Origin: an uncultured Planctomycetota bacterium
Lineage (GTDB): Bacteria; Planctomycetota; Planctomycetia; Isosphaerales; Isosphaeraceae
Assembly: GCA_963823665.1 (NCBI GenBank)
Contig: CAWGMQ010000010.1
Coordinates: forward strand, 704,001-768,000
Length of the DNA: 64,000 nt
Direction: 5' to 3'
This document shows, in pieces, positions 6,513 through 48,971 of the stretch. The translations under genes and the position numbers were made by a program. The stretch's first letter is position 1, and each line of letters opens with the position of its first letter. The notes beneath the pieces were generated by a model that was not told the DNA's origin, did not search any database, and saw only the letters and a list, made by a program, of their open reading frames with translations.

Positions 6513-9500
6513 ATGAACGAGCTCGACCTATTCATCGCAGGCCTGGAAGTCGACGATCCTGTCGAACGCGCCGCCTACCTCGACGAGGTCTGCGGCGGTG
6601 ACAGCGAAATGCGACAAAGGTTGGCCGCACTCATCGTCGCGATCGACCGGCCGGGCGCAGTTACTGGAGCGCTTTCGCGCGGCGGGCCGGGAGCGAGCAG
6701 CGATGGAATCCGAGCGGATCACCATTGAGGTCGGCTCCAGCTTGGCGGCGAGCAGTTGCGAACAAACGGTGAGCCATCAACAGGAAACAGGGGCACCGGG
6801 TCCGCTCATCGACAGCGTTATCGGCGGGCGTTACAAGCTGCGCCAGGAGCTCGGCGAAGGGGGCATGGGCTCGGTCTATCTTGCCGAGCAGACTGAGCCC
6901 GTGACGCGCACCGTGGCGCTCAAGCTGATCAAGCCGGGCTTGGACTCGAAGGCCGTGCTGGCGCGGTTTGAGTCGGAGCGGCAGGCCCTGGCGCTGATGG
7001 ACCACCCGCACATCGCCAAGTTCTTCGACGCCGGGGCGACCGAAACCGGCCGCCCGTTCTTCGTGATGGAGCTGATCAAGGGCGCCCCGCTCACGAGCTA
7101 CTGCGACGAGCACCGCCTGGGGCTGCTCGAGCGTTTGAACCTCTTCCGCCGGATCTGCGCGGCCGTGCAGCATGCGCATCAAAAGGGAATCATCCATCGC
7201 GACCTGAAGCCGACGAACATCCTGGTCGAGAGCCACGACGGCGAGCCTGTCCCCAAGGTCATCGACTTTGGCCTGGCGAAGGCGACAAGCGGGCTGCGAT
7301 TGAGCGATCACAGCATGTTGACTGCCTTTGGAGCCGTGGCCGGTACGCCACTTTACATGGCCCCCGAGCAGGTAGCCTGGAGTGCGCTCGACATCGACAC
7401 CCGAGCCGACATCTACTCGCTGGGCGTGATTCTGTACGAGCCTCTTGACCGGAAGCACGCCCATCCGTCGTGAGCTGCTTCATCAAGCGGCCGCGGACGA
7501 GATGGTGCGTTTGATCCGCGAGGTCGAGCCCCCGACCCCGAGCAGCCGCATCAGCACCTCGGACAAGCTGAAGCTGCCGAGCATCGCGGCGACACGGCAG
7601 ACCGAGCCCGCGCGGCTCTCCCGGTTCGTCCGCGGCGACCTCGACTGGATCGTGATGAAGGCGCTCGCCAAGGAACGGAACCGGCGGTATGAGTCGGCGA
7701 TCGCGCTGGCCCAGGACATCGAGCGGTTCATGAACCACGAGCCGGTGACGGCCGGGCCGCCGGCAGTGATGTACCGGTTCCGGAAATTCGCCCGCAGGCA
7801 CCGGGCGGGCTTGACGACGGTCGGAGCATTCGCCGTGCTGCTCGTCGCCACGGCCGCGGCAAGCACCAGCCTCGCCTTCTGGGCAAATCGGGAACGCGTG
7901 CGTGCGCTCAAGGCCGAAAGCATGGCCAGGGAACAACAAGCCCGCGCGCATGACCGTGAAAAGCTGGCGATCGACGCGGTGCGGCGGTACGGCGAGGCCG
8001 TTCGCACGACGCCCGAGTTGAAGAATGGTTCCGCCCTTTCAGAGCTCCGTGCCACCTTGCTCAAGGAGCCGCAGGCGTTCTTCAGAACCCTGCGCGACCG
8101 GCTCCAAGGCGATGGCGAGACGTCGGCCGACTCGCTCGCCCGCCTGGCTGCTGCGAGCTTCGAGCTGGGCCGCCTCACCGACGAGATCGGCGACAAGGAG
8201 GACGCCCTCCGAGCGTACGAGGAATCGCGGGCGATCCGGGAGCGGCTCGCCAGAGCGGAGTCGGCGAGCATCCAGATCCGGAGCGATCTGGCCACCACTT
8301 GCAACAACATCGGCATCCTGCAAGCAAGGATGGCACGGCCGGCGGAGGCGAAGGCGTCGTTCGAGCGGGCGCTCGCGATCCGGGAGATGCTCGCGCGAGA
8401 TAACCCGTCGGTCACCCAGTTTCAGAGGAACCTCACCTTCATCTACACGAACATCGGTAACCTGCAGCGTGCGACCGGCCGGCTGGCGGACGCGATGGCG
8501 TCATTCCAGCGAGCGCGCACACTCGAGGAGCGGCTCGTTCGTGAGAACCCGTCCGCCACTGAGCTCGAGCGCAACCTGGCCTTGAATGACCAACTGATCG
8601 GCGACCTGCAGCGTGAGATAGGCCGACCGGCCGAGGCGATGGCGTCGTACGAGCAGGCCCGAGTGATCCTGGAGCGGCTGGCACCCGAGAACCCGACGGT
8701 CGACAGGTTCCAGGGCACCCTGGCCGCGATCCAGATGTGCATCGGCGACCTGCAGCAAGAGACGGGAAGGCCGGCCGAGGCGAAGGTGTCGTACGAGCGG
8801 GGCCTCCCGATCCTCGAGCGGCTGGCGAGCGAACACCCGTCGGCGGCCCAGTTTCAGATCCACTTCGCCGAGGGACTCATCAAAGTGGGCGAGCTGAAGC
8901 GTGACATGAGCCGGCCGGAGGAGGCCATGGCGTTGCACGTCCGCGCCCACGCGATTCTTCTTCGGACGGTGAGCGAGAACCCGTCGTTCGCCGAGTTCCA
9001 GAGCCGCCTTGCTCACAGCCACCATTGCATCGCAGCGCTGCAAAGCGAGGCGGGCCGGCGGGCGGAGGCGCTCGAGTCGTACGAGAAGGCTCGGGTGATC
9101 CAGCAGCGGCTGGCGAGCGAGAACCCGGCGCTCACCGGCTCCGGCCTTGATCTGGCCGGCACCCTGGAAGGCATCGGATACATCAAGCTTGGAGCGGGCC
9201 AGGTGGCGGAGGCCCTCCAGTCGTTTGAGCAGGCCCGCCCGATCCGCGAACGGCTGGTCGCGAGAACCCGTCCGTCGACCGCTACCAGCAAGGCCTGGCC
9301 AGAAGTCGCAACATGATCGGCACCATGCTGCGCAAGACCGGCCATCCGGCCGAGGCGCACGAGTCGCTCGAGCAGGCCCGCGCGATCCGGGATCGCCTCG
9401 CCCGTGAGCATCCGGAATCGCCCGGCTACGCCAGCGACCTGGGCGGGACGATCCATAACCTGGCCCAGATCGACTTCGACCAGGGGCAATTCGACAAAGC

Positions 9501-29480: not shown

Positions 29481-31445
29481 GTGGCCGGAGAGGCTGAGAT
29501 GGCGCGAACGAGCCGAGGTGACGCCGGCGAGAACGGGCGCGGCGACGTGGAGCTGCGGTGTGCCGAGACGATCGGCTGGTGGTGGCCACTTGTGATTGCG
29601 CTCTGGTTCGGTCTGGTGGCTGGCTTGCTCGAGCTGTTGCTCCTGGTGATTCGCGTCGAGCTGCTCGAAGCGGGCTTCTTTCTGCGGAGCCGGCATTTCG
29701 TGTGGATGGTCCCGCTCTCCGACGTGCTGATCTTCGGAGCGGTGGGAATCTTGATGGTGGTGCCCTGGCCGTACATCGGGCGGCTTCCGGTTCGAAACAC
29801 ATTCGCGTTGCTCCTTTTCCTCGGCCTGATGAGCCAGCTTTTGCTGTTGCGCGGGGTCAATTTCTTGTCCTGCGCGCTCTTCTCGGCGGGGTTGGCCTAC
29901 CAGGTGTCACGGCGGTTCGCCTCGAACTGGCGAGGTTTTGCCAGTGCGATTCGATGGTCGGCGCCTCTGCTGGCAAGCATCCTGGCCGGAGTTCTGGCTG
30001 TGGCCGTTCTGAGGAACGCCGGCGGTTCATCCACTGTCCCCGGCAGAACGGTTGCGGAGCGCGGCGCACCGAATGTGCTTTTGATCGTGTTGGACACTGT
30101 TCGGGCCGATCACCTGAGCGTCTACGGATACCACCGCGAGACGTCGCCGCGGCTGGAAGGGCTGGCCGCGCGAGGCGTTCGATTCGACCTCGCGCGTTCC
30201 ACCGCGCCCTGGACGCTGCCTTCGCACGCCAGTATGTTTACTGGTCGATGGCCGCATGAGCTTGGTGTCGAGCGGCTCGGCTGGCTGGACGGCGGCAGTC
30301 CAACGCTCGCGGAGCACCTGCGCTCGCGCGGCTACGAGACCGCCGGCTTCGTGGCCAATACGTTTTTCTGTGGTCATGAGTCAGGCCTCGATCGCGGCTT
30401 CGACACGTATCAAGATTATCCAGTCGGACCGGCGGCGGTTCTTCGGTCATCGAGCATGGGTTGGCTACTCGCTCAAACCGCAAGCCGTGTGTGCGGTGAG
30501 CTCGCCTGGCTTTTTGGGGGTGTTCCCGGCGCAGGAATCACTCTCGATTTCGCTCGCAAGGAAGCGGGCACGGTCAGTGCCGAGTTCCTGGGCTGGCTGG
30601 ACAGGAAGCGGTCGCGGCCATTCTTTGCGTTTCTCAATTACTTCGACGCGCACGATCCCTATCTCCCGGTCCGTGATGGTCGGATCGTTCTCGATTCCGC
30701 TCGCAAATCGCGTGCGGCCTACGCGATGCTGCGCGACTGGCAGAAGTTGAAGAAAGACGAGCTCACCACCGCGGATCGCGGCCTGGCGCTGTCGGCGTAC
30801 GACGAATGCATCGCGGCACTCGACCGCGAACTGGGTAAGCTATTCGATGAGCTTGAGCGCAGGGGCATTCTCGATGACACGCTGCTGATCGTGACCGCCG
30901 ATCACGGCGAACAGTTCGGCGAACACGGCGATTTCGGACATGGGTTCAGCGTCTATCAACCAGAGGTCCACGTGCCGCTCTTGATCCATTTCCCGCGCAA
31001 GGTTCCGCAGGGGCATGTTGTTCGTGAAGCCGTCAGCCTGCGCGATGTGCCTTCGACCGTTCTTGAACTCGCGGGTCTCGACGCTCGCTCGCCGCTTCCG
31101 GGCAAGTCGCTCTCCGCATTCTGGCAAGGGAGCGAGCCAGCGTGCCCGCGCGAGGCATCGGCGCCTCTCTCGGAGCTCGCCGCACCGATCGAAACCGCGA
31201 GCTCCAGGCCCGCTCCTCCGGACTTCACAGGCTCGGTGCAGTCCGTCGGCGCCGGCCGGCACGTCTTCATCCGCCACGCCGGAGGTGCCGAAGAGCTGTA
31301 TGATCTTGAAGCCGACCCCGAGGAGCGATCGAACCTGATCGATTCTGCGAATGTCGAGCTGGTCGCGCGGCTTCGACGGTTGCTCGAGGAGCAGCAGGGC
31401 GGGTGCAGTTCTCAGCCGCCCGTGTCGTTCCTCATCGACCCGTGA
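29481..31445 (+). CDS. membrane-anchored sulfatase-like (alkaline phosphatase superfamily) hydrolase/transferase
   Basis: N-terminal TM helices, PNVLLIVLDTVRADHL, WTLPSHASMFTG, DAHDPY, TADHGE, ELYDLEADPEE. Confidence 0.9.
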   Translation: MAGEAEMARTSRGDAGENGRGDVELRCAETIGWWWPLVIALWFGLVAGLLELLLLVIRVELLEAGFFLRSRHFVWMVPLSDVLIFGAVGILMVVPWPYIGRLPVRNTFALLLFLGLMSQLLLLRGVNFLSCALFSAGLAYQVSRRFASNWRGFASAIRWSAPLLASILAGVLAVAVLRNAGGSSTVPGRTVAERGAPNVLLIVLDTVRADHLSVYGYHRETSPRLEGLAARGVRFDLARSTAPWTLPSHASMFTGRWPHELGVERLGWLDGGSPTLAEHLRSRGYETAGFVANTFFCGHESGLDRGFDTYQDYPVGPAAVLRSSSMGWLLAQTASRVCGELAWLFGGVPGAGITLDFARKEAGTVSAEFLGWLDRKRSRPFFAFLNYFDAHDPYLPVRDGRIVLDSARKSRAAYAMLRDWQKLKKDELTTADRGLALSAYDECIAALDRELGKLFDELERRGILDDTLLIVTADHGEQFGEHGDFGHGFSVYQPEVHVPLLIHFPRKVPQGHVVREAVSLRDVPSTVLELAGLDARSPLPGKSLSAFWQGSEPACPREASAPLSELAAPIETASSRPAPPDFTGSVQSVGAGRHVFIRHAGGAEELYDLEADPEERSNLIDSANVELVARLRRLLEEQQGGCSSQPPVSFLIDP

Positions 31446-31966
31446 ACTTCAGGCTGGCGATGGGCTCCCTTGGTGCCTTTCGAGCGGAACCGCGACTTCT
31501 GCGATACGAGCCGGATCCGTTCGGTACGATGAACAGTTCCTCTCGAAGGCCGCCCGACCGCCGGATGCCGTCCGCTCCTCTGGGCCGCCGCACCACCGGT
31601 CGGCGACGCCGGACCAGTCGGCCGCGGGTAGCTGCCCCGGCGCAGCGGGGTCAGCCTGACCCGGCACGGCGTCTTGTGGAGCAGCTCGGCGAGTCTTGAA
31701 AGTGCGCTCCCGTTCTGGGTCCAACCCGACCGCAAGTCGAGTCGCGTGAACCAGCACGTTGGTATTCGGCTCTGAACGCGATTAAAATCAGTTCGGCGGG
31801 CGAACGGAGGCCATCGCGGGCCGCGGCTCCCGTCCCTCTCGAGCGCGGCGCGGGGGAACTCACCAAGGTGCGCGTCAGCGAACTCGGAACGTCCTCCGGA
31901 CACGGTAACCCAACACTGCCCGGAGAACGTGAAATCGAGACCAAGCAAGAGACTGGAAGGAATCCG

Positions 31967-32823
31967 ATGACCCACGGCGTGCAATCGATGCCGAGCCCGT
32001 CGAACCGGGGCACTGACTTTCTTATCCTGACACCCCTTCCAGAAGAGCGGGACGCTGTCCTCCGCTGCCTGGGGTCCTACCGTAAGCTACCGCCATCCGA
32101 CGAAGACATTCGGGTCTACTACGAGTCGGATCTGGCAGCGATCTTCCCGGATGGATCGAGCACGACCTACCGGGTCGTGGTGACTCCGCTGCTCGGGATG
32201 GGGCGGGTCGAAGCGGCGAACGCGACAGGGGACGCCGTCCGCCGCTGGCGGCCGCGTTACGTCCTCCTCGTGGGCATCGCGGGGGGCCTGGCCAAGGCGC
32301 TCGTCGGGCTCGGCGACGTCCTCATCTCGGACCAAATCGTTGACTACGAGCTTCAGAAGCTGACAACCGAAACGACGACGATCCGCTGGCAGGTGTATCG
32401 AGTCGACCCCCGTATGCTGGGGGCGGCGCAAAACGTGATTGGCGATGAGTGGCAAGAGCTCCTGGAGCACGAGCGACCAGGAGGCCGCGGCAAGCCCAAG
32501 CAGCTCTTTGGCCCGATCTGCACCGGCGACAAAGTCATCGCCAACAGCCTGATCGACGAGTATCGCGAGGTGTGGAGCAAGTTAATCGGCGTCGAGATGG
32601 AGGCCGGCGGCACAGCGAGCGCGGCGTTCCAGGCGGCCAACTCCCCCGGTTTCTTCATGATTCGCGGCGTGTCTGACCTTGCCGATGGGGCCAAGGACTC
32701 GTCTGACGTGTTGAGCTGGCGCCGTACGCCTGCGATGTCGCTGCAGCGTACGCGGTCGCGCTCCTCCGGAGCGGACCAGTCCCGGCGTCTGGAAGACCGG
32801 AGGCTACCGCAAACCCTCAGTAA
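31967..32823 (+). CDS. PNP/MTA-SAH nucleosidase-family effector (~285 aa); probable 1-nt sequencing deletion at ~32722
   Basis: LILTPLPEE, GMGRVEAA, LLVGIAGG, GDVLISD, GDKVI, GVEMEAGG, IRGVSDLAD; a shifted frame gives the expected end YACDVAAAYAVALL...ANPQ*. Confidence 0.88.
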
Positions 32824-32858
32824 GCCCACCGGCGGCCGAGGGCTTCACGCCGGTGGGC
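32799..32858 (+). promoter_or_regulatory. putative -1 programmed ribosomal frameshift signal
   Basis: GGAGG (32799), A_AAC_CCT heptamer (32811-32817), 6-nt spacer containing the stop codon, 11-bp stem GCCCACCGGCG/CGCCGGTGGGC (32824-32858); the -1 frame is the NB-ARC ORF. Confidence 0.7.
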
Positions 32859-35663
32859 GAGACACCTTTACCTTGGTCTGCCAGTAAACCTGGACGGAGC
32901 CCGGCGCCGCCACCCGTAATTCACCCCGATGAAGGCACCGCCGTTGGTGACGATAGGGCGCAGCCAGCCCCGCTGCTACAAAACCTTCCCCACCAGCGCA
33001 ACCAGAACTTCACCGGCCGTGAAGACTTTCTGGCTCGGATGGCTGAATATTTTGCCACGGCGGACTCGACCGCCCGGAGGCTGGCACTGTGGGGATTGGG
33101 CGGGGTTGGCAAGACCCATATGGCCAACGAATATGCTTACAGACATCAATCGCGGTACCGCCTGATCTGGTGGGTTCGTTCCGAGGATCTGGGCACACTC
33201 TTCGATGACATCGCTGCACTTGCCGTCGCTCTCCAGTTGGCCGGAGCCGGTTTGCCCGAACGTTCGTCAATCGTCGAGGCCGTGCGGAACGCACTCGAGA
33301 TACGCCGCGAATGGCTGTTGATTTTCGACAACGCGGAGGTTCTAGACAACCTTTCCGAGATACTACCACGCCGCGGCGGTCATGTTCTCATCACGTCGCG
33401 CAACCCCAACTGGGGGGAATTAGCGACCGCGCGCCAAGTCCGGCAGTGGGATCGGCCGGAATCGATCGAGTTTCTGCGGAAGCGAACGTCCGACGAGGAT
33501 GACGCCGCCGCCGATGCCTTGGCGGAAGCCCTGGGCGACTTGCCGCTCGCGCTGGCGCAAGCATCTGCTTACATTGACAAAACAGGTACAACATACAAGC
33601 AGTATCTCGAACTTTTCCTCAGTCGTCGCCAAGACCTCTGGGGGAGGGAAGAGAAACCTCTCGGGTACAATGAAACGATCACAACAACCTGGAGTGTGGC
33701 GATCGGCGAAATTCGCCAGTCGAGACCACAAGCCGCTAAACTCCTCGGCATGTTCGCTAGATTCGGCTCCGGCTCGGTCGAAGACTATCGCTCGATCGCC
33801 AGCGATTTCGCAGGTGCTTTGTCTGACTTGATCACCTTCAACGATTCGATCGCGGCCCTCAGGTCCTTCTCGCTCATCGAACGAAACGGAGACCTGGTCT
33901 TTGTCCATCCACTTGTAAGGAAGGTCGTCTCCGACGGATTCGGCGAGAAATTTGACAAGCCGACACATTTGGACATGCCCGGTCCAGGTGAGCAAACGAA
34001 TTTGGCGATTGACACTGCACAGACATCGGGCCTCGATGCCGGCGGGCCCGATCTGGTGAATCGGGGCCGGGAGCCAGAGCCCATCGGTGCGGTCCAGCGG
34101 ACCAGAATGGGCGCGATCGTCACAACCAAGCTGGATTGCCCATATCCGCGGTGCACCTCGAACGGCGCACCGACGTTCAATCGCCTGCCAGGAGGGATCG
34201 GCCAGTGCCGAAGTTGCAATCGGTTGGTCGTGGAGTGTAGGGAGGAGGGCTGCCGGCGCTCAGGCACGTTCAACCGCCCTTTCGTGCGTCACTGCCGGCG
34301 CTGCGGTGAGAGAATCAATCAGACGGCACAGTGGGAGAAGGCTCGCTCCGACGGATGGGACCTTGTACCCCAGTCGGTCTCGCGTCCTGAGGTCATCGCC
34401 GATCTCTCCGGACTGGCGGACAACAGCTCGTCGGGAAGCGTTGCGATCGCGACGGCGATGGTGCGCGGGGCTTTGGCCGTTCACCACGCGGGCCGTTTCC
34501 TGGCCCTGCTCAGGGTCGTGCCGCTTGCGACCGGCAACCCGTTCCTCTGGGAGCTCGACCGCTATCCGTTCCCGGCTTTGCCTGATGGGTCCGATCCCGC
34601 TCCCTATCCGCCGAAGCTTCTTCCCGGCGAGCGGTATCTGGCTTATTCCTGCCCTCAAGGAGTGCTGGTGCTCGACCTCTGGAGTTGCCCAGGACTGTCG
34701 GCGAAGGACCTCGGTCCCCAATACCGGCTCATCCGGTGTCAGCGCCGTTCGCTCGCCGCAGCCCCGATCCCCCTGGATGAATCGCGGATCGGCCTTTTGA
34801 CCAGAGATCGGTCGGGCGACGGGCACTTCCGATGGGCCGTTTGGGATCTCTCGAACAAAGACTTGACCGACGCGGAGTTGTCGTCCCGTCTGGACTCCCG
34901 GGAGACCAAAGATCTCGGGCACCTGTCGTGGATACGCAAGAGCTGTCGAGCTGAGCTAGTTGACGACCGCGTGATCGTCTTCACGACGCCGCGAGCGCAG
35001 AGAATCTGGCGTATCGAAGACGCAATCGCCTCGCGTTTTGACATGCTGCTGACGATCTGGCCAAATCGCGCCACGAAACAGACCGACTCCATCATCCTCA
35101 ACGAGCACCACGACGATTGGGCATCCGTGGGACTGTCCAGCCACGCCTTTCTACTTGAACCAGGCGCCGTGCGGTTCTCGTGTGTTATTTGCGTCGAGCA
35201 AGATGACTCGACCAGCCCGGTACGTATCGAGGAATATGAAGTCGACTTCGACACCTTGCAAGCGAATGCGCCTCAATCGATGGGACATCGTTCGGGAGCC
35301 GTACCTATCGGTTTGGCGCCCAACCCGAACAAGGTCTCGCAAATGTATTTCCGCGTGGGGACCGAAATCTGGTCCCAGACCGACGGGCAGGGTACCAGCA
35401 TTTGCCTCGATGGCCTTCCAAAAGTCGTGGTCAGCCTCCGTCTCAGCGGCCCGCTGGTCACAAGCGTCGGCGAGAACGAAGAAGGGGAACGGTTCATCCA
35501 GATCGATTCGCTACGGCACAGGGGCGGGCATGCCGGCGTTCTCGTCGAGAACAGGCTTCTTTCCGAACCGTTACTCTGGTATCACTGGCTCTTTACGATC
35601 GAGATGGACGCTGAAAACCGTCTGCAGGCATGCCGTCGTATCGTGGCGTTTAACCAAGGCTAA
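32811..35663 (+). CDS. NB-ARC/STAND ATPase fused to zinc ribbons and a beta-rich C-terminal domain
   Basis: NLPHQRNQNFTGRE, GLGGVGKT, WLLIFDNAE, LITSR, LPLALAQA, VHPLV; then CPYPRC, CRSC, CREEGC, CRRC. The frame is open from 32811; the ORF track starts it at 32853. Confidence 0.85.
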   Translation, partial: KPSVSPPAAEGFTPVGETPLPWSASKPGRSPAPPPVIHPDEGTAVGDDRAQPAPLLQNLPHQRNQNFTGREDFLARMAEYFATADSTARRLALWGLGGVGKTHMANEYAYRHQSRYRLIWWVRSEDLGTLFDDIAALAVALQLAGAGLPERSSIVEAVRNALEIRREWLLIFDNAEVLDNLSEILPRRGGHVLITSRNPNWGELATARQVRQWDRPESIEFLRKRTSDEDDAAADALAEALGDLPLALAQASAYIDKTGTTYKQYLELFLSRRQDLWGREEKPLGYNETITTTWSVAIGEIRQSRPQAAKLLGMFARFGSGSVEDYRSIASDFAGALSDLITFNDSIAALRSFSLIERNGDLVFVHPLVRKVVSDGFGEKFDKPTHLDMPGPGEQTNLAIDTAQTSGLDAGGPDLVNRGREPEPIGAVQRTRMGAIVTTKLDCPYPRCTSNGAPTFNRLPGGIGQCRSCNRLVVECREEGCRRSGTFNRPFVRHCRRCGERINQTAQWEKARSDGWDLVPQSVSRPEVIADLSGLADNSSSGSVAIATAMVRGALAVHHAGRFLALLRVVPLATGNPFLWELDRYPFPALPDGSDPAPYPPKLLPGERYLAYSCPQGVLVLDLWSCPGLSAKDLGPQYRLIRCQRRSLAAAPIPLDESRIGLLTRDRSGDGHFRWAVWDLSNKDLTDAELSSRLDSRETKDLGHLSWIRKSCRAELVDDRVIVFTTPRAQRIWRIEDAIASRFDMLLTIWPNRATKQTDSIILNEHHDDWASVGLSSHAFLLEPGAVRFSCVICVEQDDSTSPVRIEEYEVDFDTLQANAPQSMGHRSGAVPIGLAPNPNKVSQMYFRVGTEIWSQTDGQGTSICLDGLPKVVVSLRLSGPLVTSVGENEEGERFIQIDSLRHRGGHAGVLVENRLLSEPLLWYHWLFTIEMDAENRLQACRRIVAFNQG

Positions 35664-35666
35664 GAC

Positions 35667-36047
35667 ATGCCCGCTACCGATCCCAGTCCAATCCGGGAGT
35701 TGCTGAGCAATTTCGCAATCTTCCTTGCGGTCTCGGCGGTCGGCGGGTCTGTCTGGTATTTCGGGCTGTTCCGATGGTTGCTCCGTAAGAAAAACCCGGC
35801 TTGGCCGCTCGACGCCTGGAGGATTGCCTCCTGCGGCGCCTGGCTGACCGTCTGTGCCGCGCTACTCGTGTTCCGGGACCAGTTTTGCAAGGAGCTACTC
35901 ATTCCGCTGCTCACCCGCTTTGGTCTTCACCCCATATTGATATCATGGCTCCCGGTCGTGGTGGTTCTCCCTGTGATCGCGTTGGTCGGCCTGCTGGTGA
36001 TCTGGAACTTTCGCCGGGACGAGAGCAACCGCGCGAGGCCCGCCTGA
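35667..36047 (+). CDS. small three-TM membrane protein
   Basis: 126 aa, three hydrophobic segments, starts 3 nt after the NB-ARC stop codon. Confidence 0.7.
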   Translation: MPATDPSPIRELLSNFAIFLAVSAVGGSVWYFGLFRWLLRKKNPAWPLDAWRIASCGAWLTVCAALLVFRDQFCKELLIPLLTRFGLHPILISWLPVVVVLPVIALVGLLVIWNFRRDESNRARPA

Positions 36048-36202
36048 CCGCCGGTGTCGCCCGCCGGGATTCGGCCCGAAGTGATTGGATCGTGCCATCC
36101 AGGAACTTTTCCTTCTTGCGAGTGGCCGTCCGCGGTAGCGCGAGGAGCAGTTGATGAGCGACGTCGAATCGAGGGTCACGTCCACCTCGAGGGGCGTCAT
36201 CC

Positions 36203-39200
36203 ATGGGGATGAGACCCTCACAAAGCCCGTCCCCACAATCTTCATCGCCTTGGGGGGAGCGGTACAGACGTCGTCATGCGGCTGCGCAAGCGGTTCTTCG
36301 ACCGCTTTCACACCGCGGATCCGGGTCACGTCCGGTTTGTGTTTATCGATACCGACACGCAGAAGTCGGTTCCCAAAGGAGAGAATTCGGAGTTGTTCGA
36401 CGAACTCCAGCCCAGTCAGGAGGACCTGGTTTCCGCCCCTATCACCGCGGCTCAATTCCAACGCGTCTTCGCCGACCTGTGCGCAAGATCAACTGCGACC
36501 ACCTCACGTGGCTGAAACCTGAGCTCGAGCGGATCGGTCCCGAGGCTCTGGAGCACGGGGCCGGGACCCATCGGCAGTTTGGCCGCCTGGCGTTCTATCT
36601 CAATCATGTGCCGATCCGTCACACGATCGAGCGGCAGATCGCCGAGTCCCTGCGCTTTGCCGCCCTTAACCCCACCAAAGTCGCGGAGGATCGGATCGAA
36701 GTCGTGATCGTGATGACGCTGGCCGGCGGGACCGGGTCGGGGATGTTCATCGATGTGGCTTATCTGGTCCAGGATATCCTCGATCGGCCCACCTATCGCG
36801 CATGCAGAAGCAAGAGCGTCACCCTGATCGCCTTCCTTCCCGGCCTCTTCGACGCACACAGGGCGCTGTCGCAGCGATTCCGACAGAATGCGTTCGCCGC
36901 GCTCCTGGAACTCGAATACTACGGAACACCTCGCACGGGCGACGATCTGTTGCTGGGAGACGTTCGGCACGGTGCGCGACAGGAGCGTCACTGGACCGGC
37001 TTCATGGCCGACTGGGGCGATGGCAACAGGCGGTTCATCCGCGGCCCCGGCTGGGACACCTGCTTCCTGATCGACAACCGCAACGATCTCGATCCAAACG
37101 CCCCGTTGTCGGATCGCGACGTCTTCCAGATGGCGGCGGACTACCTGTTCCTCGACTTCGAGAACCATGAACTCGCCGTCGCCAAGCGATCGTCTCGCTC
37201 CAATATCGTTCAATTCAAGGACAAGGTCAAGGAGACGTGGGTGCGCCGGCCGGATAGCAGGGAGGCGGCGGGCGGCATCTTCGAGGGCAACTCCGTCTAC
37301 GCCACCCAGAACGGCTGCCGATTCAGCTCATTCGGGCTGGCCGAGATCTACTTCGACCTGGAAAAGCTCTACCAGGTCGCGGCATACCGACTCGCCGCAA
37401 TTCTGGTCCGATCCCGATGGCTCGGCAACGCCGACCAACACCCGGAGAGCCGGTACACGACTTGGATCAACGAACACCTGTTTCAGCCAAGAGACATACT
37501 GGACGAGGAAATTCCCCCTTCATTCCACCCCGAGCGACTGACACGCCAGTTACTGACGACTGCCTCCGGTTGCTGGCTCGACGACATCACGCGGGACATT
37601 GAGTCCTTGAGCAAGATCGAGCCGAAGGAGGGCCTCGATCGGATGCGCCGGCTCCTCGGCGCCCACGTGGAGCTGCTTCACAAGGCGGCCCCCGGAGATA
37701 TTGCGGCCGCCCGCCAGACGATCCAGGACAACCTGGTGCGGTTGAGTGGCGACGCGAAAACGCTGGGCTCGTTGCGCACGCGCCTTCGCGAGCTCGCCGC
37801 CAGGCATTGCGCGCTTCATGGCGTCTCCTCGACTCTGCGCTTGCTCGATGACATTGTCCGCGCTCTCTACGAGATCCGGGAACGCTCTCTCGCCCTGCCG
37901 GCAGGTCCAACCGACCACGATCTCCTGGCACGTCTTGTCGAAGCCCAGATGGTCCCCTGGCCGGTACACGACACCGCCGTGGCAACCGAATTCAGCCGAG
38001 CCCGTGACCTGATAGAAAAAGCGCTTCGACGCCGCTACGACCAGGCCGCCGGGATGGCGATCGACCGCATGCTCCTGGATGTTTGCCGGTACCTCCGTGC
38101 GCCGGCCCAACCCCCTTACCCCGAAGTGACGGTGCATGGCACATTGCATGCCTACTACAGACGGGCGCAAAGTTTCCTGAGAATGCTCGCCGAGCGCCTG
38201 GAAAAACGGTTCAAGTTGACCTACGGCTACGACCATTTCAAGGTGGCCCGCAGGCACTCGCTCGGCCCAAATTGGGATGAAGCCACCTTCGATAAACGGA
38301 TCGATGAGGCACTGGTGCTTCATCCCGAAATCAACAAGTCGGATGACGCGAACGACAAGTTCAGCTTCGACTGGAGCCGGTTCGAGGCTCTGGTCCTGCA
38401 AAACTTACGCAATTTGCACGGCGCCGGGATGGAGGTGGTGAAGGACGTCGATGATCTCATCAGGAACTGTTTCGAGAACGAGCGGGACAACACCGAAGGG
38501 ATCATCCAGGTCGCCGACTGGCTGGCGGACGCCTGCAAGGTCGTCCTCCACGGTGGCAAGGATGCCAGCGGCTTGCCTGCCGGCGGTTTCCAGCTCAGGG
38601 ACGAGGCAGACGGTAACGCCGTCGACCTGCTAGTCCGCCAGGCAGACTGGATGGAGATCCTTGACAGGATGGTCAAGGTGAGCATGCCGTACCTTCAGAC
38701 GACCGACCCGACCCGGATCTCGAACGATTTCTCTCCGGCCTACAGCAATCTCTACAGCCAGAAACAGGGAGAAACCAACACCAGGGTGAGCGAGAGGAAC
38801 GCCGCGCGGGTGTTCGAGAAAGTGCGGGAAATCGTTGCCTCCCGCGCACAGTACAGCGCCAGTTTGGCGCGCGCAATATCGCTCGCCCACTGGAGGCCGA
38901 GAACTCAAGGATCATCCTCGTCCGCGAGATGACCGGGTTTCCCCTCCAGTTCTACGCCCACCTGGACAGCCTGCGCGAGGCTTATGAGACCACCCCGAAC
39001 GTCACGCTCAAGAACGACGAGTGCCACATCAACTTCAAGGTAGCGAGTGAAGACCTCCCCGACATCACCCTGTTGGAGACGGATACCTATGCCCTGATTC
39101 GTGAGAACGTGTCGGTCGTGATCCGCGCGATCATCCTCCAGGCCATCAACTGGAGGGAGGGGATGCTGAAAGTGGCGGTGCCCGACAAGTATGGTACGGC

Positions 39201-39792
39201 AGGGATCGAGGTGCCGCTGGGCTCTCGCCTCCATCGGGCCATCAAGTACGCGTGCGAAAAAGACAGCGTCCGGCAGTATCTCGTCCGGTTCTGGAAGGAA
39301 TGGACAGACCGGGCCTTGCCCCACGACTGGGCGTCTCTGTACGCGTCGGGGCGAATGACTTGGACTGAGTTGAATCCCGAACGCGACATTCGGCAAGACG
39401 ACGTGTCTTCGCCGCTCCGCAATTGCTATGACAACCTCCTCGCACAGGCCAGTAAATGCTTGAAATCCACCGAGGAAGGCCAGCGATGGCTGCAGGATCT
39501 CCAGCCGTACGCCTTCTCGGAGCCGCCCCCCGCGGACCGTCTCGATGGTGCCAACACTCGTCCCCTGGCCGCCAGGTTTGTGCGAAGGTGCTTGAGGCGA
39601 CTCAACGCGGACCTGCCGATCTACCAGGTGATCGCCGACACGGTCCCCATGACGCTGGAGCAGGCCGCGATGGCCCACGATTGCATATGCGCGACGGAAA
39701 GGTTCCCCCTCGCGGTCTTCTGCGATGACGATCTGTTTTGCCCGCAATGTGGCGGACGCGTGAACGAGGAGTCCCAGCCCGCTCGAATTTGA
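36203..39792 (+). CDS. large tubulin/FtsZ-like (Tubulin_2-type) protein, ~1190 aa, with helical body and C-terminal zinc ribbon; frameshifts at ~36206, ~36257, ~36485 and ~38870
   Basis: Reconstructed PTIFIALGGxGTDVV, FVFIDTD, GAGTHRQFGRLAF, TLAGGTGSGMFIDVAY, NAFAALLEL, FSSFG; C-terminal CIC...FCPQCGG. Confidence 0.85.
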
Positions 39793-40035
39793 ATCCGCTG
39801 CGAATGACCTGTCTTTGGCCGTGAGCACCGCCCGCACTTGGTTTCCTGCGATAGATCCATTGACAGGCGTTGAAGCGAGTGCGCAACTTTCCCGTAAACC
39901 GCGTGCCGAACACCTTAATAAGGCGTTTCCCTGCTTAAAAACGAAAGAGGCGCGTTCCGATCGGCCGATAACTGGGGGCGTGGGTGCCGAAGAGGGCAGA
40001 GGGATGCCATCGTGAATTGATCGGAAGGAAGCGCG

Positions 40036-41553
40036 ATGACGGCGGATTCGGCGATTGTCAAAGAGGGTAGCGCTGGGGAGAAGGGGGACGCCGAGAGCGT
40101 CGTCGAGATGCTGCTCCGGGTGGCTGGGAGCGCGCATTATTTCCGTTCGAGCGATGGCGGCGTGCACGCTCGGGTGCGGGTGGGGAACCGGCACGAGACA
40201 TACCGGCTGAAATCGCTGGAATTCACCGACTGGCTGATCGAGAGTTACCGACGTGAGCGGGTCGACCTGCCGCCACCGACTGCGGTTGTGCGCGTTGTGA
40301 GGGCGGTTGAGGCTCGAGCGCGGTTTGATGGTGGCACGCGGTTGTCTTACGTGCGGGTGGGGCGTGGGGGCGACGGCGATGGCGGGGGGACGGAGAGTTA
40401 CATCGACCTGGGTGATTCCAGCGGTCAGGCGGTGAGGATCAGCGCGCGGGAATGGTCGGTGGTGGATCGACCGCCGGTGCATTTTCGTCGGCCACCGGGG
40501 TTGTTATCGCTCCCTTTTCCAGCGCGGGGCGGCTCGATCGAGCTGCTGCGGCGTTATGTCAACGTGACCGAGCCGGATTTTCGACTGTTGATTGGCTGGA
40601 TGGCGGCTGCGCTCTTACCGGACGGACCTTACCCGGTTCTCGTGGTTCATGGGGAGCAGGGATCGGCCAAGACGACGCTGGCGAAGGTGATCGGTTGCTT
40701 GATCGACCCGCAGGCTGCGCCGTTGCTCGCGGAGCCGCGGAGCACGCGTGACCTTATTGTGACCGCAGCAAACGGATGGCTGCTGGTTTATGACAACCTC
40801 AGCGTGGTTCCGAACTGGTTATCGGATGGTCTGTGCCGGCTTGCGACCGGCGGAGGTTTGGCGGGCCGGGCGCTCTGGTCGAACAACGAGCGGAGTGTGC
40901 TGCAAGCCCGACAGCCGACCATCTTGAACGGCATCGACGAATTCGTATGCCGTCAGGATCTGGCCGACCGCTGTCTCTTTGTGTATTTGCCGCCGATCGC
41001 CGGCGCAAACCGGCGAGTCGAGGGCGATCTGTGGCGTGAGTTTCAAGCGGAAGCTCCGGTGATCCTGGGAGGACTGCTGGACGCGATCATGGGCGGGCTG
41101 GCGGTGCTTCCGTCGGTGCGGCCGCCCGAGCTGCCGCGGATGGCGGATTTTGCATGCCTGGGGGAGGCAATCGGGCGCGGGCTGGGCTGGCCGGAGGGGA
41201 CTTTTCTGACGGCCTACAGCGATAACCGCCGCGCCGCGACGGTTGCGTCGCTCGAGGATTCGCTGATTGTCGCCGCATTGTTCGAGAGGGCGCAATGGGG
41301 CGAGCTCGACAACTGGACGTGCTCCGCGAGCGAGATGCTGGAACAGCTCGCCGCACGAGTCTCCCCTAAAGTCAAGGCATCCGTTCGCTGGCCGAAGACG
41401 CCGCGCTCGCTGGCCGATGAGCTGCGCCGGGTTGGCCCGCAGCTTCGGATGCGCGGGATATCCGTGACGTTCACGCGAACGGCCGAGAATCGCCTGATCA
41501 CGATCGATGCGGCCGCGGCGGCAGATTTTTCGAGGGTCCCAGGCCGAAGTTGA
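40036..41553 (+). CDS. P-loop ATPase of the type found in replication modules of integrative elements (primase-associated helicase-like)
   Basis: GPYPVLVVHGEQGSAKTT, VYDNLS, LCRLATGGG, ILNGI, DLADR, PRMADF. Confidence 0.75.
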   Translation: MTADSAIVKEGSAGEKGDAESVVEMLLRVAGSAHYFRSSDGGVHARVRVGNRHETYRLKSLEFTDWLIESYRRERVDLPPPTAVVRVVRAVEARARFDGGTRLSYVRVGRGGDGDGGGTESYIDLGDSSGQAVRISAREWSVVDRPPVHFRRPPGLLSLPFPARGGSIELLRRYVNVTEPDFRLLIGWMAAALLPDGPYPVLVVHGEQGSAKTTLAKVIGCLIDPQAAPLLAEPRSTRDLIVTAANGWLLVYDNLSVVPNWLSDGLCRLATGGGLAGRALWSNNERSVLQARQPTILNGIDEFVCRQDLADRCLFVYLPPIAGANRRVEGDLWREFQAEAPVILGGLLDAIMGGLAVLPSVRPPELPRMADFACLGEAIGRGLGWPEGTFLTAYSDNRRAATVASLEDSLIVAALFERAQWGELDNWTCSASEMLEQLAARVSPKVKASVRWPKTPRSLADELRRVGPQLRMRGISVTFTRTAENRLITIDAAAAADFSRVPGRS

Positions 41554-41634: not shown

Positions 41635-42654
41635 ATGGGCTGGACGTCTTTTGATACCACGAAGGCTTGGCTCGTGGGCAACATGAAGAGAAGGTTCGAG
41701 AGCCGGCGAGGGACCGCGGCTCGCCCCCCAGACTTGAAGTTCGTCAGTGAAGTGCTGCGCGAGCTGCTTCCCGCGAAGCAGTTCGAGGCGATCTGGAAGA
41801 GGGTCGAGGATTGGGATCGTCGCGCGCAGCCGTGCGAACTGGCGGATGATATCTTCACCTACTTGATTGTTGGCGAAGCCAAGCGCTTCGAACACATCAA
41901 GGGTATCCGAGATCGTTCCTTTGCCGAATATCAGCGGGAAGTGGCTTCACGCGGAGACGACGAGGCCTACAGACTCGCGGCGCGGCTGGTCACGGGACTT
42001 GACGAGCTTTGTCTCCCTGGGCGCGGGTGCACTGCCCCGGCGGAAGGGGCACCTGCTCCAGGCTCAGGGGCGATCGATGTGACGAACAGCCCGGGGTGGC
42101 TCGTGCAACAGCTCGAGTCGACCGCGCCGGGGTGCGAGTGGCTGCTCAGGGCGTGGGCGCAGGTTCGCGAGTGCTTGCAGGAGTCGCGTTTGTGGTGGTT
42201 CAACGAAGGCAGCTTCAGGGTAATCCGGCTGCTGGGTAAAGAGCCGCGCGACGCGCTCGAAGGGACTCTGGTCGCCGAGATCTTTCTGGCGAGCCACGCG
42301 GTCGATCGGTGCAGCAGGAACCCGTTCTCGTTGCTGCGGGGCCAAGCGAGCCTCGACGAGGTGAATGACCTGCTGCGGCGGCTAGGGCCGCGCGTGAAAT
42401 CGTCCGTCGATACAAGCGACAAAGAGCAGGGGCGCCAAACGCTGCTTGCAATCGTGGAGCAGGCGATCGCCCGGCTCCAGGCGAGAGCCAGAGAGCACGT
42501 CGAACGTGCAAGCGGCGATGAGGCGACGATCGCAGTCCAGCGCGCGTTCGATGCCTCGCCCCGGGGGCAAGACGTCGAGGAATGCAAGCGCCGCGTTAAA
42601 GAGCGCGTCAAACACACAATCGCTACAATGCGGCAGCTCGGGGGTAAAAAATGA
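41635..42654 (+). CDS. hypothetical protein
   Basis: 339-aa ORF; its 3' part is duplicated at 46104-46510. Confidence 0.6.
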   Translation: MGWTSFDTTKAWLVGNMKRRFESRRGTAARPPDLKFVSEVLRELLPAKQFEAIWKRVEDWDRRAQPCELADDIFTYLIVGEAKRFEHIKGIRDRSFAEYQREVASRGDDEAYRLAARLVTGLDELCLPGRGCTAPAEGAPAPGSGAIDVTNSPGWLVQQLESTAPGCEWLLRAWAQVRECLQESRLWWFNEGSFRVIRLLGKEPRDALEGTLVAEIFLASHAVDRCSRNPFSLLRGQASLDEVNDLLRRLGPRVKSSVDTSDKEQGRQTLLAIVEQAIARLQARAREHVERASGDEATIAVQRAFDASPRGQDVEECKRRVKERVKHTIATMRQLGGKK

Positions 42655-42700
42655 CGCAGATGACCGGGGCAGCATTTGTTATGCGCGTGGTTCGGGTGGG
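42304..42700 (+). repeat. ~400-bp imperfect direct repeat, copy 1
   Basis: Colinear with 46104-46510 (offset 3800) and ends in GGGGGTAAAAAATGACGCAGATGAC. Confidence 0.9.
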
Positions 42701-45912: not shown

Positions 45913-46103
45913 GCGGCAAGCCCGGAGTTTGTGGATCGGCCGATTCTCATGGCGAGCATTTTCGATGCACACCGCGGGCCGTCGGCCCCGATCCGTTCGC
46001 CGCTGGGATCCGACGCCTCGTCCGTCGACCCCGCACGCCGTTCCCAAGCGAATACCGCCCTCAGGCCTCGGTCGAAAAGGACAGGCATCGCCCCGTTGAC
46101 ACG

Positions 46104-46510
46104 GATCGCCTGGGCAGGAACCCGTTCTCGGCGCTTCGGGGCAGAGTGAGCCTTGACGAGGTGAATGACTTGCTTCTGCGGCTGGGCCCGCGCGTGAAAT
46201 CGTCGGTCGAGACCCGCGATGAGGAGGAGCGGCGTCAAACGCTGCTTGCAATCGTGGAGCAAACGATCGTCCGGCTCCAGGCGAGAGCTAGAGAGCACGT
46301 CGAACGCGCGAACGGCGATGAGGCGAGGATCGCAGTTGGGCGAGCGTTCGATGCGTCGCCCCGGGGGCAAGACTTCGAGCAATACAAGCGCCGCGTTAAA
46401 GAACGCATCAAACTCACGATCGCTACAATGCGGAAGTTCGGGGGTAAAAAATGACGCAGATGACGCAGATGACGCAGGTCAGCATCTCTTATGCGCGGGA
46501 TTCGGGGGGC
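46104..46510 (+). repeat. ~400-bp imperfect direct repeat, copy 2 (3' gene fragment)
   Basis: Encodes SLDEVNDLLLRLGPRVKSSV...TIATMRKFGGKK and is followed by three ATGACGCAG units. Confidence 0.9.
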
Positions 46511-46671
46511 GGGGTAAGGTTGGACCGTTGTGATTCGCTCGCGCTCGCCAGACAATAGAACGGAGGCAGGAACCGCGTTTCGACCGATCGCGATGGCGGC
46601 GAGACGGTCTTCCGTGAATGACGGTGCGAGCACGCGCGGTACAGGGGCCGCGCCGACAGGTCCAGACCCGT

Positions 46672-48971
46672 ATGTCCAATCGCCGCATCTTCGTCAGCGC
46701 CACAAATCGAGAACCTCGCGAGTTATCGTGACCTTGCGAGCAAGTCGCTTCGCAAGCGCGGTTATGACGTGGATGACCAGGCTGTATTCAGTCTGAGCTT
46801 TCTCCAGCTCATCCAGATGCTCGAGCAGCGAATTGAGCGGTGCGACGCGGTCGTTTGCCTGGTTGGTTTCGCCTACGGCGGCGAGCCATCAAATCGCCCG
46901 CCCGATCAACCCCGCCGCTCCTACGCCCAGTGGGAGTACCACCTCGCCCGCGAGCTTGATAAGCCCGTCTACCTTCTCATGGGCACAGGAGAACACGACG
47001 TTTGACGAGCCAAAGCCAAACATCACGCCAGAAAGCGGCGAGCTGCTCCAGCTCCAGCGTGACCATCGCGTCGAGCTTACTCGCGATCGCGACTGGCGCC
47101 CGTTCAACGGCGCCGATCAACTCCGCGCCGAGCTCGCCGAGCTTCGTTTCCCCTGGCCAGATTCGCCAGTCGCACACCAGCCCAACAATCTGCCGCTGGC
47201 CTCGATCGGCAAGCTTTTCAAAGGCCGCGACTCGTTCCTCGACGAGCTGCGCGAAAGGCTAGGAGTCGCCGGAGCCTCAGCCACAGCAATCGTGAACCGG
47301 CTGGCTGTTCACGGCCTGGGTGGTGTCGGCAAGACCCGCGCCGCGGTCGAATTTGCCTGGCGACATGCCGATGACTAAACCGCCTTGCTCTTCGTCTCGG
47401 CCCAGTCTCAGGCCGAGCTCCGGTCCAACCTGGCCAATCTTGTCGGTGTATTGGGGATGACCGGCGGCGAGACATCGGTCGAGAATCAATCGACCGCCAT
47501 CCTGGAGTGGCTCGATGCCCACCCCGGCTGGCTGCTGATCATCGACAACGTAGACACCGAAGAGGCGGCCCAGGCGGTCGAGGACCTGCTGACCAAACTC
47601 CGGTCCGGCCACACATTGATCACATCTCGAATCGGCAACTGGGGTGCCGGCGTCGAGCCGCTCGATCTGGACATCCTGGCCCGGTCCGACGCCGTGGCCT
47701 TCTTGATCGAGCGGACCCCGCACCGTCGCAGGACGAAGGACGATGGGACCATCGCCGCCGAGCTCGCCCGCGAGCTGGACGGCCTGGCCCTGATGCTGGA
47801 GCAGGCCGGCGCTAACATCGACAAGCTGCGCCTGTCATTCGCCGAGTATTTGGACCAATGGAAGGCGAAGCGCTCCGAAGTGCTCCGCTGGCACGACCCG
47901 CGCCTCATGAAGTATCCCGCCGGCGTGGCCGTTACCTGGGAAACCACGTTCGCCCAGTTGACAGATCGCGAGCGGCGGTTGCTCGACGTCCTCTCCTGGC
48001 TGGCCCCCGACCCGATCCCGCTCTTCCTGTTCGATGCCAAGCCACTCGTCGACGCCATCCCAGATATCCGCACGGCGCTGGCCGCCCTGGCAGGCTACTC
48101 GCTGGCGCGCTTCGACGCCTCGGGCAACGCGGTTCTGGTCCACTGCCTCGTGCAAGAGATCACCCGCGGCCGCATACCCGCGGCCGACCGAATCACCACG
48201 CTCCAGCTCTCCCTCGACGCAGTAAACGATGTCGCCGTGGGCAATCCTCAGGATTTCCGTACATGGCGGGTCTGGAAACCCCTGGCAGCCCACGGCGAGG
48301 CCGTGAGCCGGTATGGCGACACCGCGGGCCTCGCCAACCCCACCGCGTGGCTGATGGGCCAACTCGCTGGGTACTGGCTCTACTGCGGAGTGTACCGCCA
48401 GGCCGAGCCGCTGATGCGGCGAGCGCTGTCGATCGACGAGGCAAGCTTTGGCCCGGACCACCCCGACGTGGCCAGAGACCTCAACAATCTGGCGCAATTG
48501 CTGCAAGCCGCCAACCGCCTGTCCGAGGCCGAGCCGCTGATGCGTCGAGCGCTATCGATCGACGAGGCAAGCTTTGGCCCGGACCACCCCGACGTGGCCA
48601 GAGACCTCAACAACCTGGCGTCGTTGCTGCAAGCCACCAACCGCCTCTCCGAGGCCGAGCCACTGATGCGTCGCGCGCTTTCGATCGACGAGGCAAGCTA
48701 TGGCCCGGACCACCCCGATGTGGCCATCGACTTCAACAACCTGGCGCGACTGCTGCAAGCCACCAACCGCCCGTCCGAGGCCGAGCCCCTCTTCCGCCGC
48801 GCCGCCCAGATCCTGACCGATTTCACGCAGAAGACCCGCCACGAACATCCAAACCTTCAAGCTGTCATCAACAATTACCGTGCCTTCTTGGACGAGCAAG
48901 GACAGACGCCGGAACAAATCGATCAAGCCTTGGGCGAGCTGACCAGCTCACCCGACGCGAACGACTCCTGA
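46672..48971 (+). pseudogene. DUF4062-like effector + NB-ARC + TPR (NLR-like); frameshifts at ~46710 and ~46990 and an in-frame TAA at 47376
   Basis: RIFVSAT, CDAVVCLVGFAYG, SYAQWEY, NNLP, GLGGVGKT, WLLIIDNVD, LITSR, 42-aa TPRs. Confidence 0.8.
48401..48800 (+). repeat. three tandem 126-bp TPR-coding repeats
   Basis: AEPLMRRALSIDEASFGPDHPDVARDLNNLA repeated with near DNA identity. Confidence 0.9.

Follow-up and report, generated by a model that had tools for sequence, protein, structure and literature searches.

Operons built around FtsZl1 (Tubulin_2) proteins were predicted in 2010 to act in membrane remodelling or against invaders (PMC2875224). In that account the T6-H7 elements are not identifiable in the FtsZl1 family and polymerisation is predicted at most; no experiments on these operons were found in the literature searched. 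For the GAP1-N2 systems, as outlined in PMC7159879, tubulin and HSP70/GrpE are non-overlapping themes, mainly from Firmicutes and Actinobacteria, with GAP1 and double GTPases as their basis. The sensors given for bacterial NACHT proteins include beta-propellers (10.1101/2022.07.19.500537), and PNP domains have been proven to act as ATP nucleosidase effectors, among them the domains of proteins resembling nucleotide-binding leucine-rich repeat receptors (NLRs) (10.1101/2023.01.24.525353). Here, a 64,000-nucleotide (nt) stretch of the genome of an uncultured Isosphaeraceae bacterium (contig CAWGMQ010000010.1), called the window below, was analysed for a locus that brings such parts together. Four genes at 31967-39792 encode a PNP, an NB-ARC protein continued into a zinc-ribbon/beta-propeller, a small membrane protein and a Tubulin_2 protein. 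As proposed in a preliminary description of this DNA, they are co-oriented and closely spaced (30, 3 and 106 nt). The operon itself is of known type; its new part, as far as the sequences tell, is an NB-ARC in which the operon's propeller takes the place of the tetratricopeptide repeat (TPR) sensor, in frame, as seen in two genomes.

The block resembles the FtsZl1-vWA operons (PMC2875224; PMC9871819) in an FtsZ-like domain at the N-terminus, the GGTGSG loop and the size (about 1200 aa) of its tubulin-like protein, in the neighbouring membrane-protein gene, and in the vWA genes of half of its related loci (5/10). Unlike them it contains neither a vWA nor a P-loop GTPase gene, and it is not of the kinase-fused planctomycete type presented in PMC2875224. 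The Hsp70-like, propeller, NB-ARC and PNP partners are not met in the sections of the same paper that were covered. The parent operon resembles the GAP1-N2 systems of PMC7159879 in that tubulin, Hsp70-like, GrpE-like and vWA genes are joined and TIR, kinase and STAND genes adjoin. Pfam scans of the block and of selected related-locus open reading frames (ORFs) returned no GTPase family, no GAP1-specific search being made. With the bacterial NLR-like STAND proteins, the AP-ATPase-TPR proteins (NF040586), Apaf-1 and Dark, the second gene product shares an NB-ARC and winged helix, both intact, and a repeat sensor after them; it differs from STAND proteins in that this sensor comes from the first gene of a neighbouring operon and in that there is no N-terminal effector domain. 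The PNP is like the Cap17-like effectors (10.1101/2023.01.24.525353) in its PF01048 domain, its EME and VSD motifs and an NLR-like neighbour gene, and unlike them in standing alone with no fused sensor, the likeness being one of profile matches only. A description of an NB-ARC fused to an FtsZl1-operon propeller was not found in titles and opening abstracts, most subscription papers and supplements lying outside this scope.

The fused second gene was compared with each of its presumed parents. PF00931 matched its N-terminal part with 23.7 bits (cut-off 23.5), and NF040586 matched residues 48-365 (E=3e-83; profile positions 3-333 of 830). In contrast to the FxSxx-COOH system TPR protein, it has no C-terminal TPRs and stays below the cut-off (281 bits against 300); the TPR part of NF040586 was absent and the Pfam scan returned no TPR family. 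The six closest NB-ARC proteins of the family (35-39% identity) all continue into TPR-like repeats (6/6, judged by eye). The preliminary description had called this gene NB-ARC/zinc ribbon. Both elements were borne out, but the C-terminal half is predicted to be a beta-propeller: AlphaFold2 modelled the ribbon-propeller with a predicted local distance difference test (pLDDT) score of 92 and a predicted template modelling score (pTM) of 0.92, and the best structural match was WDR41 (VIA-align, Z=18.9, root-mean-square deviation 3.5 over 310 residues), a fold of WD40 type. An earlier model from 10 sequences was poor (pLDDT 53) and was discarded. The linker between the two halves scores as coding in the fused frame.

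The same fusion was found in frame in a protein from a second genome (P0002). Its odd N-terminus is what the Walker B region gives when read out of frame (score 86, against 41 or less for shuffles). Identities between the two genomes were similar for the NB-ARC (74%), the propeller (70%) and the tubulin (67%), P0023, on a contig as long as that of P0002, being taken as the tubulin of the P0002 genome. The preliminary description had made its proposal depend on co-occurrence in other genomes, and NB-ARC, propeller and Tubulin_2 do recur together there. In trees of 19 and 18 rows, picked from top matches, the fused propellers were sisters (support 100/98) nested among homologues recorded without NB-ARC, and the two tubulins also paired, with weaker support (93/87). 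The linkers of the two fused proteins are unequal in length, each in frame. A third sequence, P0011 (94% over 112 residues), breaks off at a frameshift within the linker and seems to start at another, which makes it uninformative. DNA of the P0002/P0023 locus was not found among the 121 genomes of the family or in the genome scan. These comparisons showed, at the level of sequence, that an NB-ARC-TPR gene has lost its TPRs and been joined in frame to the operon's ribbon-propeller, and this in an ancestor common to the window genome and one other.

The operon is sparse, to judge from its propeller. The ribbon-propeller family gave 90 profile matches, nearly all of 100-670 aa. Only one of them, P0001, matches the NB-ARC; it is a short-read version of the window's own protein and carries the fusion in frame. 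The propeller was present in 4/121 genomes of the family and 2/401 of the phylum, the window genome included. Scores in a protein atlas searched with the propeller were all below 0.9, and a metagenome scan with the propeller alignment gave 0 confirmed loci. A search for fused forms of greater length (1295-3695 aa) gave none; forms of 908-1294 aa were covered by a 50%-identity library alone, where close relatives sit behind one representative.

Genes 2-4 make up the front half of a Tubulin_2 operon that is conserved in planctomycetes; its rear half is gone here, and the propeller, membrane and tubulin genes stand in the parental order. Ten related loci were compared, at which the tubulin aligns over its full available length; several are cut by contig ends, some are kin, and more distant Tubulin_2 loci were excluded. 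The ribbon-propeller occurred at 9/10, a ribbon-Hsp70-like gene at 9/10 (8 directly after the tubulin), vWA at 5/10, a DnaK-like gene at 4/10 and NB-ARC at 1/10. Of the 7 loci scanned with a whole gene, 3 gave Pfam support for the Hsp70 label, and GrpE matched at 3 loci (E=1e-10 to 0.08). Five other Tubulin_2 loci of the family were distant (25%) and shared no partner with the queries. The preliminary description had remarked on the lack of a vWA or second GTPase gene. None is indeed found in the block, but as a feature of design the absence does not hold, given the vWA and Hsp70-like genes of the related loci; it reflects truncation, since the operon is cut inside the Hsp70-like gene.

The neighbours of these operons vary. 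A short TIR-kinase gene (L005:6035-7400, frameshifted near 7215) lies directly upstream of the propeller, in the position of the NB-ARC in the window. In genome G578 an unrelated TIR-NB-ARC-TPR gene (L152:12125-15139) stands 27 nt upstream of the vWA-side genes at the far end of the cluster. Others are a divergent KAP NTPase (G405), Hsp70/GrpE genes (L042) and FHA/kinase genes. As a separate observation, a large form of at least 10 genes in varying order (L021:9955-19107, L022:1611-11000 and L156 in G405; L150-L152 in G578; L042; L043) contains ribbon-propeller, membrane, Tubulin_2, ribbon-Hsp70-like, vWA, coiled-coil, coiled-coil/TPR, zinc-finger GrpE-like and second DnaK-like genes. Two tandem Ppx/GppA-like genes with a coiled-coil membrane gene lie beside the operon in L004:1892-3958 and L025:6584-8776.

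Table 1. Features of the inserted block and its flanks (window coordinates).
Feature	Position	Strand	Remarks
Inserted block, ~8.5 kb, soil bacterium	31434..39910 (ends +/-5 nt)		absent from same-genus genome G029
PNP/MTA-SAH-nucleosidase-fold protein, ~285 aa (gene 1)	31967..32822	+	PF01048 E=5.5e-15
NB-ARC (AP-ATPase) + winged helix, N-terminal part of 936-aa ORF (gene 2)	32853..33940	+	PF00931; start codon uncertain
Motif positions in gene 2	33093; 33312; 33387; 33537; 33903		Walker A; Walker B; sensor-1; GLPL; HPLV
Zinc-ribbon region + WD40-like beta-propeller (gene 2)	34107..35663	+	in frame with NB-ARC; elsewhere the operon's stand-alone first gene
Membrane protein, 126 aa, three hydrophobic segments (gene 3)	35667..36047	+	hydropathy; same-position homologues in L004, L005 (46-56%)
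Tubulin_2/FtsZl1 protein (gene 4)	36154..39669	+	GGTGSG loop near 36725; single-base drops 36251, 36483, 38868
Stub of zinc-ribbon Hsp70-like gene	39670..39792	+	similarity ends near 39762; in frame from tubulin, whose stop is lost
Membrane sulfatase, left flank	29481..31445	+	backbone gene; last codons supplied by block
Helicase/primase-like P-loop protein, right flank	40036..41553	+	backbone gene, also in G029; outside the system

The fourth gene encodes a Tubulin_2 domain (136.7 and 33.6 bits against a cut-off of 27) with LAGGTGSG at 36719; its full-length homologues have 1158-1252 aa, and no relative of solved structure was found by sequence. The final 41 residues align with the Hsp70-like gene's N-terminus at 9/9 loci (reached by 0/500 shuffles each), and a C-terminal CxxC end occurs in 0/32 full-length tubulin homologues. 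The preliminary description had placed zinc ribbons on both the STAND protein and the tubulin. Both are in the sequence, but that of the tubulin is, by this alignment, made of the first ~31 codons of the parent operon's next gene. The read-through from tubulin to stub looks real because a contig over 39509-39682 shows no indel.

All four genes are real and look intact. The source genome comprises 16.5 Mb in 12 contigs and is 91.9% complete, and the loci nearest to the block come from Isosphaeraceae and Planctomycetota records. Pfam returned PNP_UDP_1 (E=5.5e-15), NB-ARC (E=3.2e-5) and Tubulin_2 as two pieces (E=3.3e-8 and 1.5e-39). The frameshift polishing called for earlier was carried out for the tubulin gene with short-read contigs, which are short, of depth 2-4 and possibly from the same strain. 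At each of the three frameshifts one such contig carries one extra base; the frameshifts are single bases dropped in assembly, and the gene reads through as a single 1213-aa ORF with 0 internal stops. At 38575 a base is missing in one run X1 contig and present in an X4 contig. No NB-ARC, PNP or tubulin motif is missing. None of the 106 propeller columns invariant in nine relatives was altered. The tubulin departs at 7/152 family-conserved columns (others 1-12), six conservatively and one being an unread break. There is thus no clear decay of propeller or tubulin at the sequence level, and the chance mosaic of decayed fragments considered in the preliminary description was not seen. Nor was an already defined system recognised: of eight proteins scanned with the 2023 PADLOC library, seven had no match at E<=0.1 and the PNP alone matched, at protein level. 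PHROGs matched 0/4 proteins. A plasmid search gave 34 records, and the 15 listed match the NB-ARC only. No promoters, terminators or terminal repeats above chance were found in the block, the score of its terminal repeat being reached by 21/300 shuffles.

The PNP was matched by the PADLOC profiles PN-superfamily effector (E=6e-16) and PDC-M60C (E=1.7e-22), and its relatives in the Protein Data Bank are MTA/SAH (methylthioadenosine/S-adenosylhomocysteine) nucleosidases. Homologues run on into YACDVAAAY, as does the window after a one-base shift near 32724; to judge from these homologues the frame break there is probably one missing base, an assembly error. Among the contigs listed, none covers this break or the gap between PNP and NB-ARC. 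A PNP-NB-ARC fusion by way of two frameshifts was first thought likely and was dropped, as the closest homologue (L163; 76% over 94 residues, and a damaged copy too) shares the stop codon: it ends where the window has its TAA (32820-32822), and 30/51 bases are alike over the last 17 codons. Because L163 stops there, the PNP is most likely a gene of its own, and the suggestion that it is the effector domain of the NLR was not sustained. PNP genes are present in 9/121 genomes of the family, the window genome included. The four best-scoring of the 8 family matches (L158, L159, L160, L161) carry a fused C-terminal domain of ~140 aa with an ATPase-like ORF next, a layout that we take to be that of ABC-three-component defence loci.

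The four genes fill a discrete block, because the same-genus genome G029 is collinear with the window across 21934-48943 (75-86% DNA identity on both sides) and has an empty site, the sulfatase end being joined directly to window position 39911. Gain in the window genome would be simpler than loss in G029, and is favoured because the parent operon is so sparse; one sister genome cannot fix the direction. No integrase, transposase or other mobility gene was found among the block ORFs. The helicase-like ORF at 40036 was considered as the element that cut the operon and was rejected, being backbone common to G029. This gene (40036-41553) has 7 more DNA matches at 64-69% in its own genome and several in G029, and no Pfam or PHROGs family. 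Further right, a 300-nt direct repeat (87%; 42314-42700 and 46103-46520) surrounds a kinase-TPR gene; the stretch between the copies is absent from G029, and short pieces recur genome-wide. A second NB-ARC-TPR gene (46833-48971, split near 47378) is also present in G029.

Tentatively, and with somewhat less than even confidence, we read the block as a small abortive-defence island assembled from two known kits, in which an NLR monitors a tubulin complex and triggers the PNP. Apaf-1-type NB-ARC/propeller proteins oligomerise after nucleotide exchange. Here, the propeller may have retained the contact that it natively makes with the tubulin-like/membrane complex, and would now be the sensor of the NLR. 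When an invader disturbs this complex, the NB-ARC would exchange nucleotide, oligomerise and switch on the neighbouring PNP in trans, which might deplete ATP, as Cap17-type domains do, or cleave a related nucleotide, and arrest the cell. The combination of nucleotide-depleting NLR, tubulin and membrane protein envisaged in the preliminary description is retained in part: NB-ARC, propeller and Tubulin_2 recur, but a PNP was found at none of the ten related loci. A further interpretation, which we consider unlikely, sees a guard-type NLR in the making: the NB-ARC would have recruited its sensor from among the subunits of a tubulin/Hsp70 machine, and the machine would have been stripped to tubulin and membrane bait with an Hsp70-like ribbon tip, with the free PNP as effector.

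Several observations weigh against a defence island. The NB-ARC itself carries no effector domain, and the PNP is present at 0/10 related operon loci; its coupling to the NB-ARC is putative, and a free stand-alone PNP, if constitutive, needs a control. The fusion is rare (1/90 propeller profile matches). Of the clade-invariant columns the tubulin departs from 9.7%, where six others depart from 0.9-14.6%, and its branch is long (0.32 against 0.13-0.17 in close unfused homologues). The reduction of the Hsp70-like partner, kept at 9/10 related loci, to a stub, together with the lost tubulin stop, looks like damage.

The block may instead be a truncated remnant, an account that we consider only a little less probable than the defence island: the fusion would have worked in a complete FtsZl1/Hsp70/vWA operon, of which the front part alone entered or survived recently and is no longer a unit, the genes looking intact because little time has passed. 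The Hsp70-like gene breaks ~150 nt inside the right block edge, the tubulin has lost its stop, and neither a mobility gene nor a significant terminal repeat is present in the block. Searches of the window genome with L005 queries, at the completeness given above, recovered neither the rest of the Hsp70-like gene nor the vWA gene nor the next partner. However, the corrected tubulin is free of stops and frameshifts, conserved columns are retained, and the stub stays in frame up to a stop that follows closely on its last CxxC.

Rather improbable, in our estimate, is that unlinked neighbours were brought together, a PNP and a broken NB-ARC having landed upstream of an operon for membrane remodelling or chaperone functions and not defence. 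The join would then be a tolerated read-through, with the propeller translated from its own start. An ATG at 34107 lies just ahead of the zinc ribbon, and P0002 keeps Met at the ancestral propeller start, but Ile stands there in the window. The upstream gene varies among the operons (TIR-kinase, KAP NTPase or Hsp70/GrpE), the closest PNP homologue stands in an unrelated context, and membrane remodelling has been proposed for FtsZl1 operons (PMC2875224). Drift, however, would not preserve the NB-ARC and the propeller to a like degree in the two genomes, nor is the coding linker in the fused frame in its favour. An assembly chimera is very improbable: the assembly does drop bases, and among the contigs listed none spans the block edges or the break near 39762, but G029 is collinear on either flank, near-identical contigs from a single run lie within the block as well as on the right flank, and the fusion is also present in a short-read protein and in the second genome.

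With four genes in 8.5 kb and a built-in readout (NB-ARC and PNP), the block is small enough to clone and test. Even as a remnant, it would still document a conserved planctomycete propeller-tubulin-Hsp70 operon. The guard-type interpretation, if true, would parallel the integrated-decoy NLRs of plants and tie FtsZl1 operons to immunity. If the block protects from phage, this would mean that fusion to a subunit of a neighbouring complex can give an NLR a new sensor, and would support a defence role of the parent operons.

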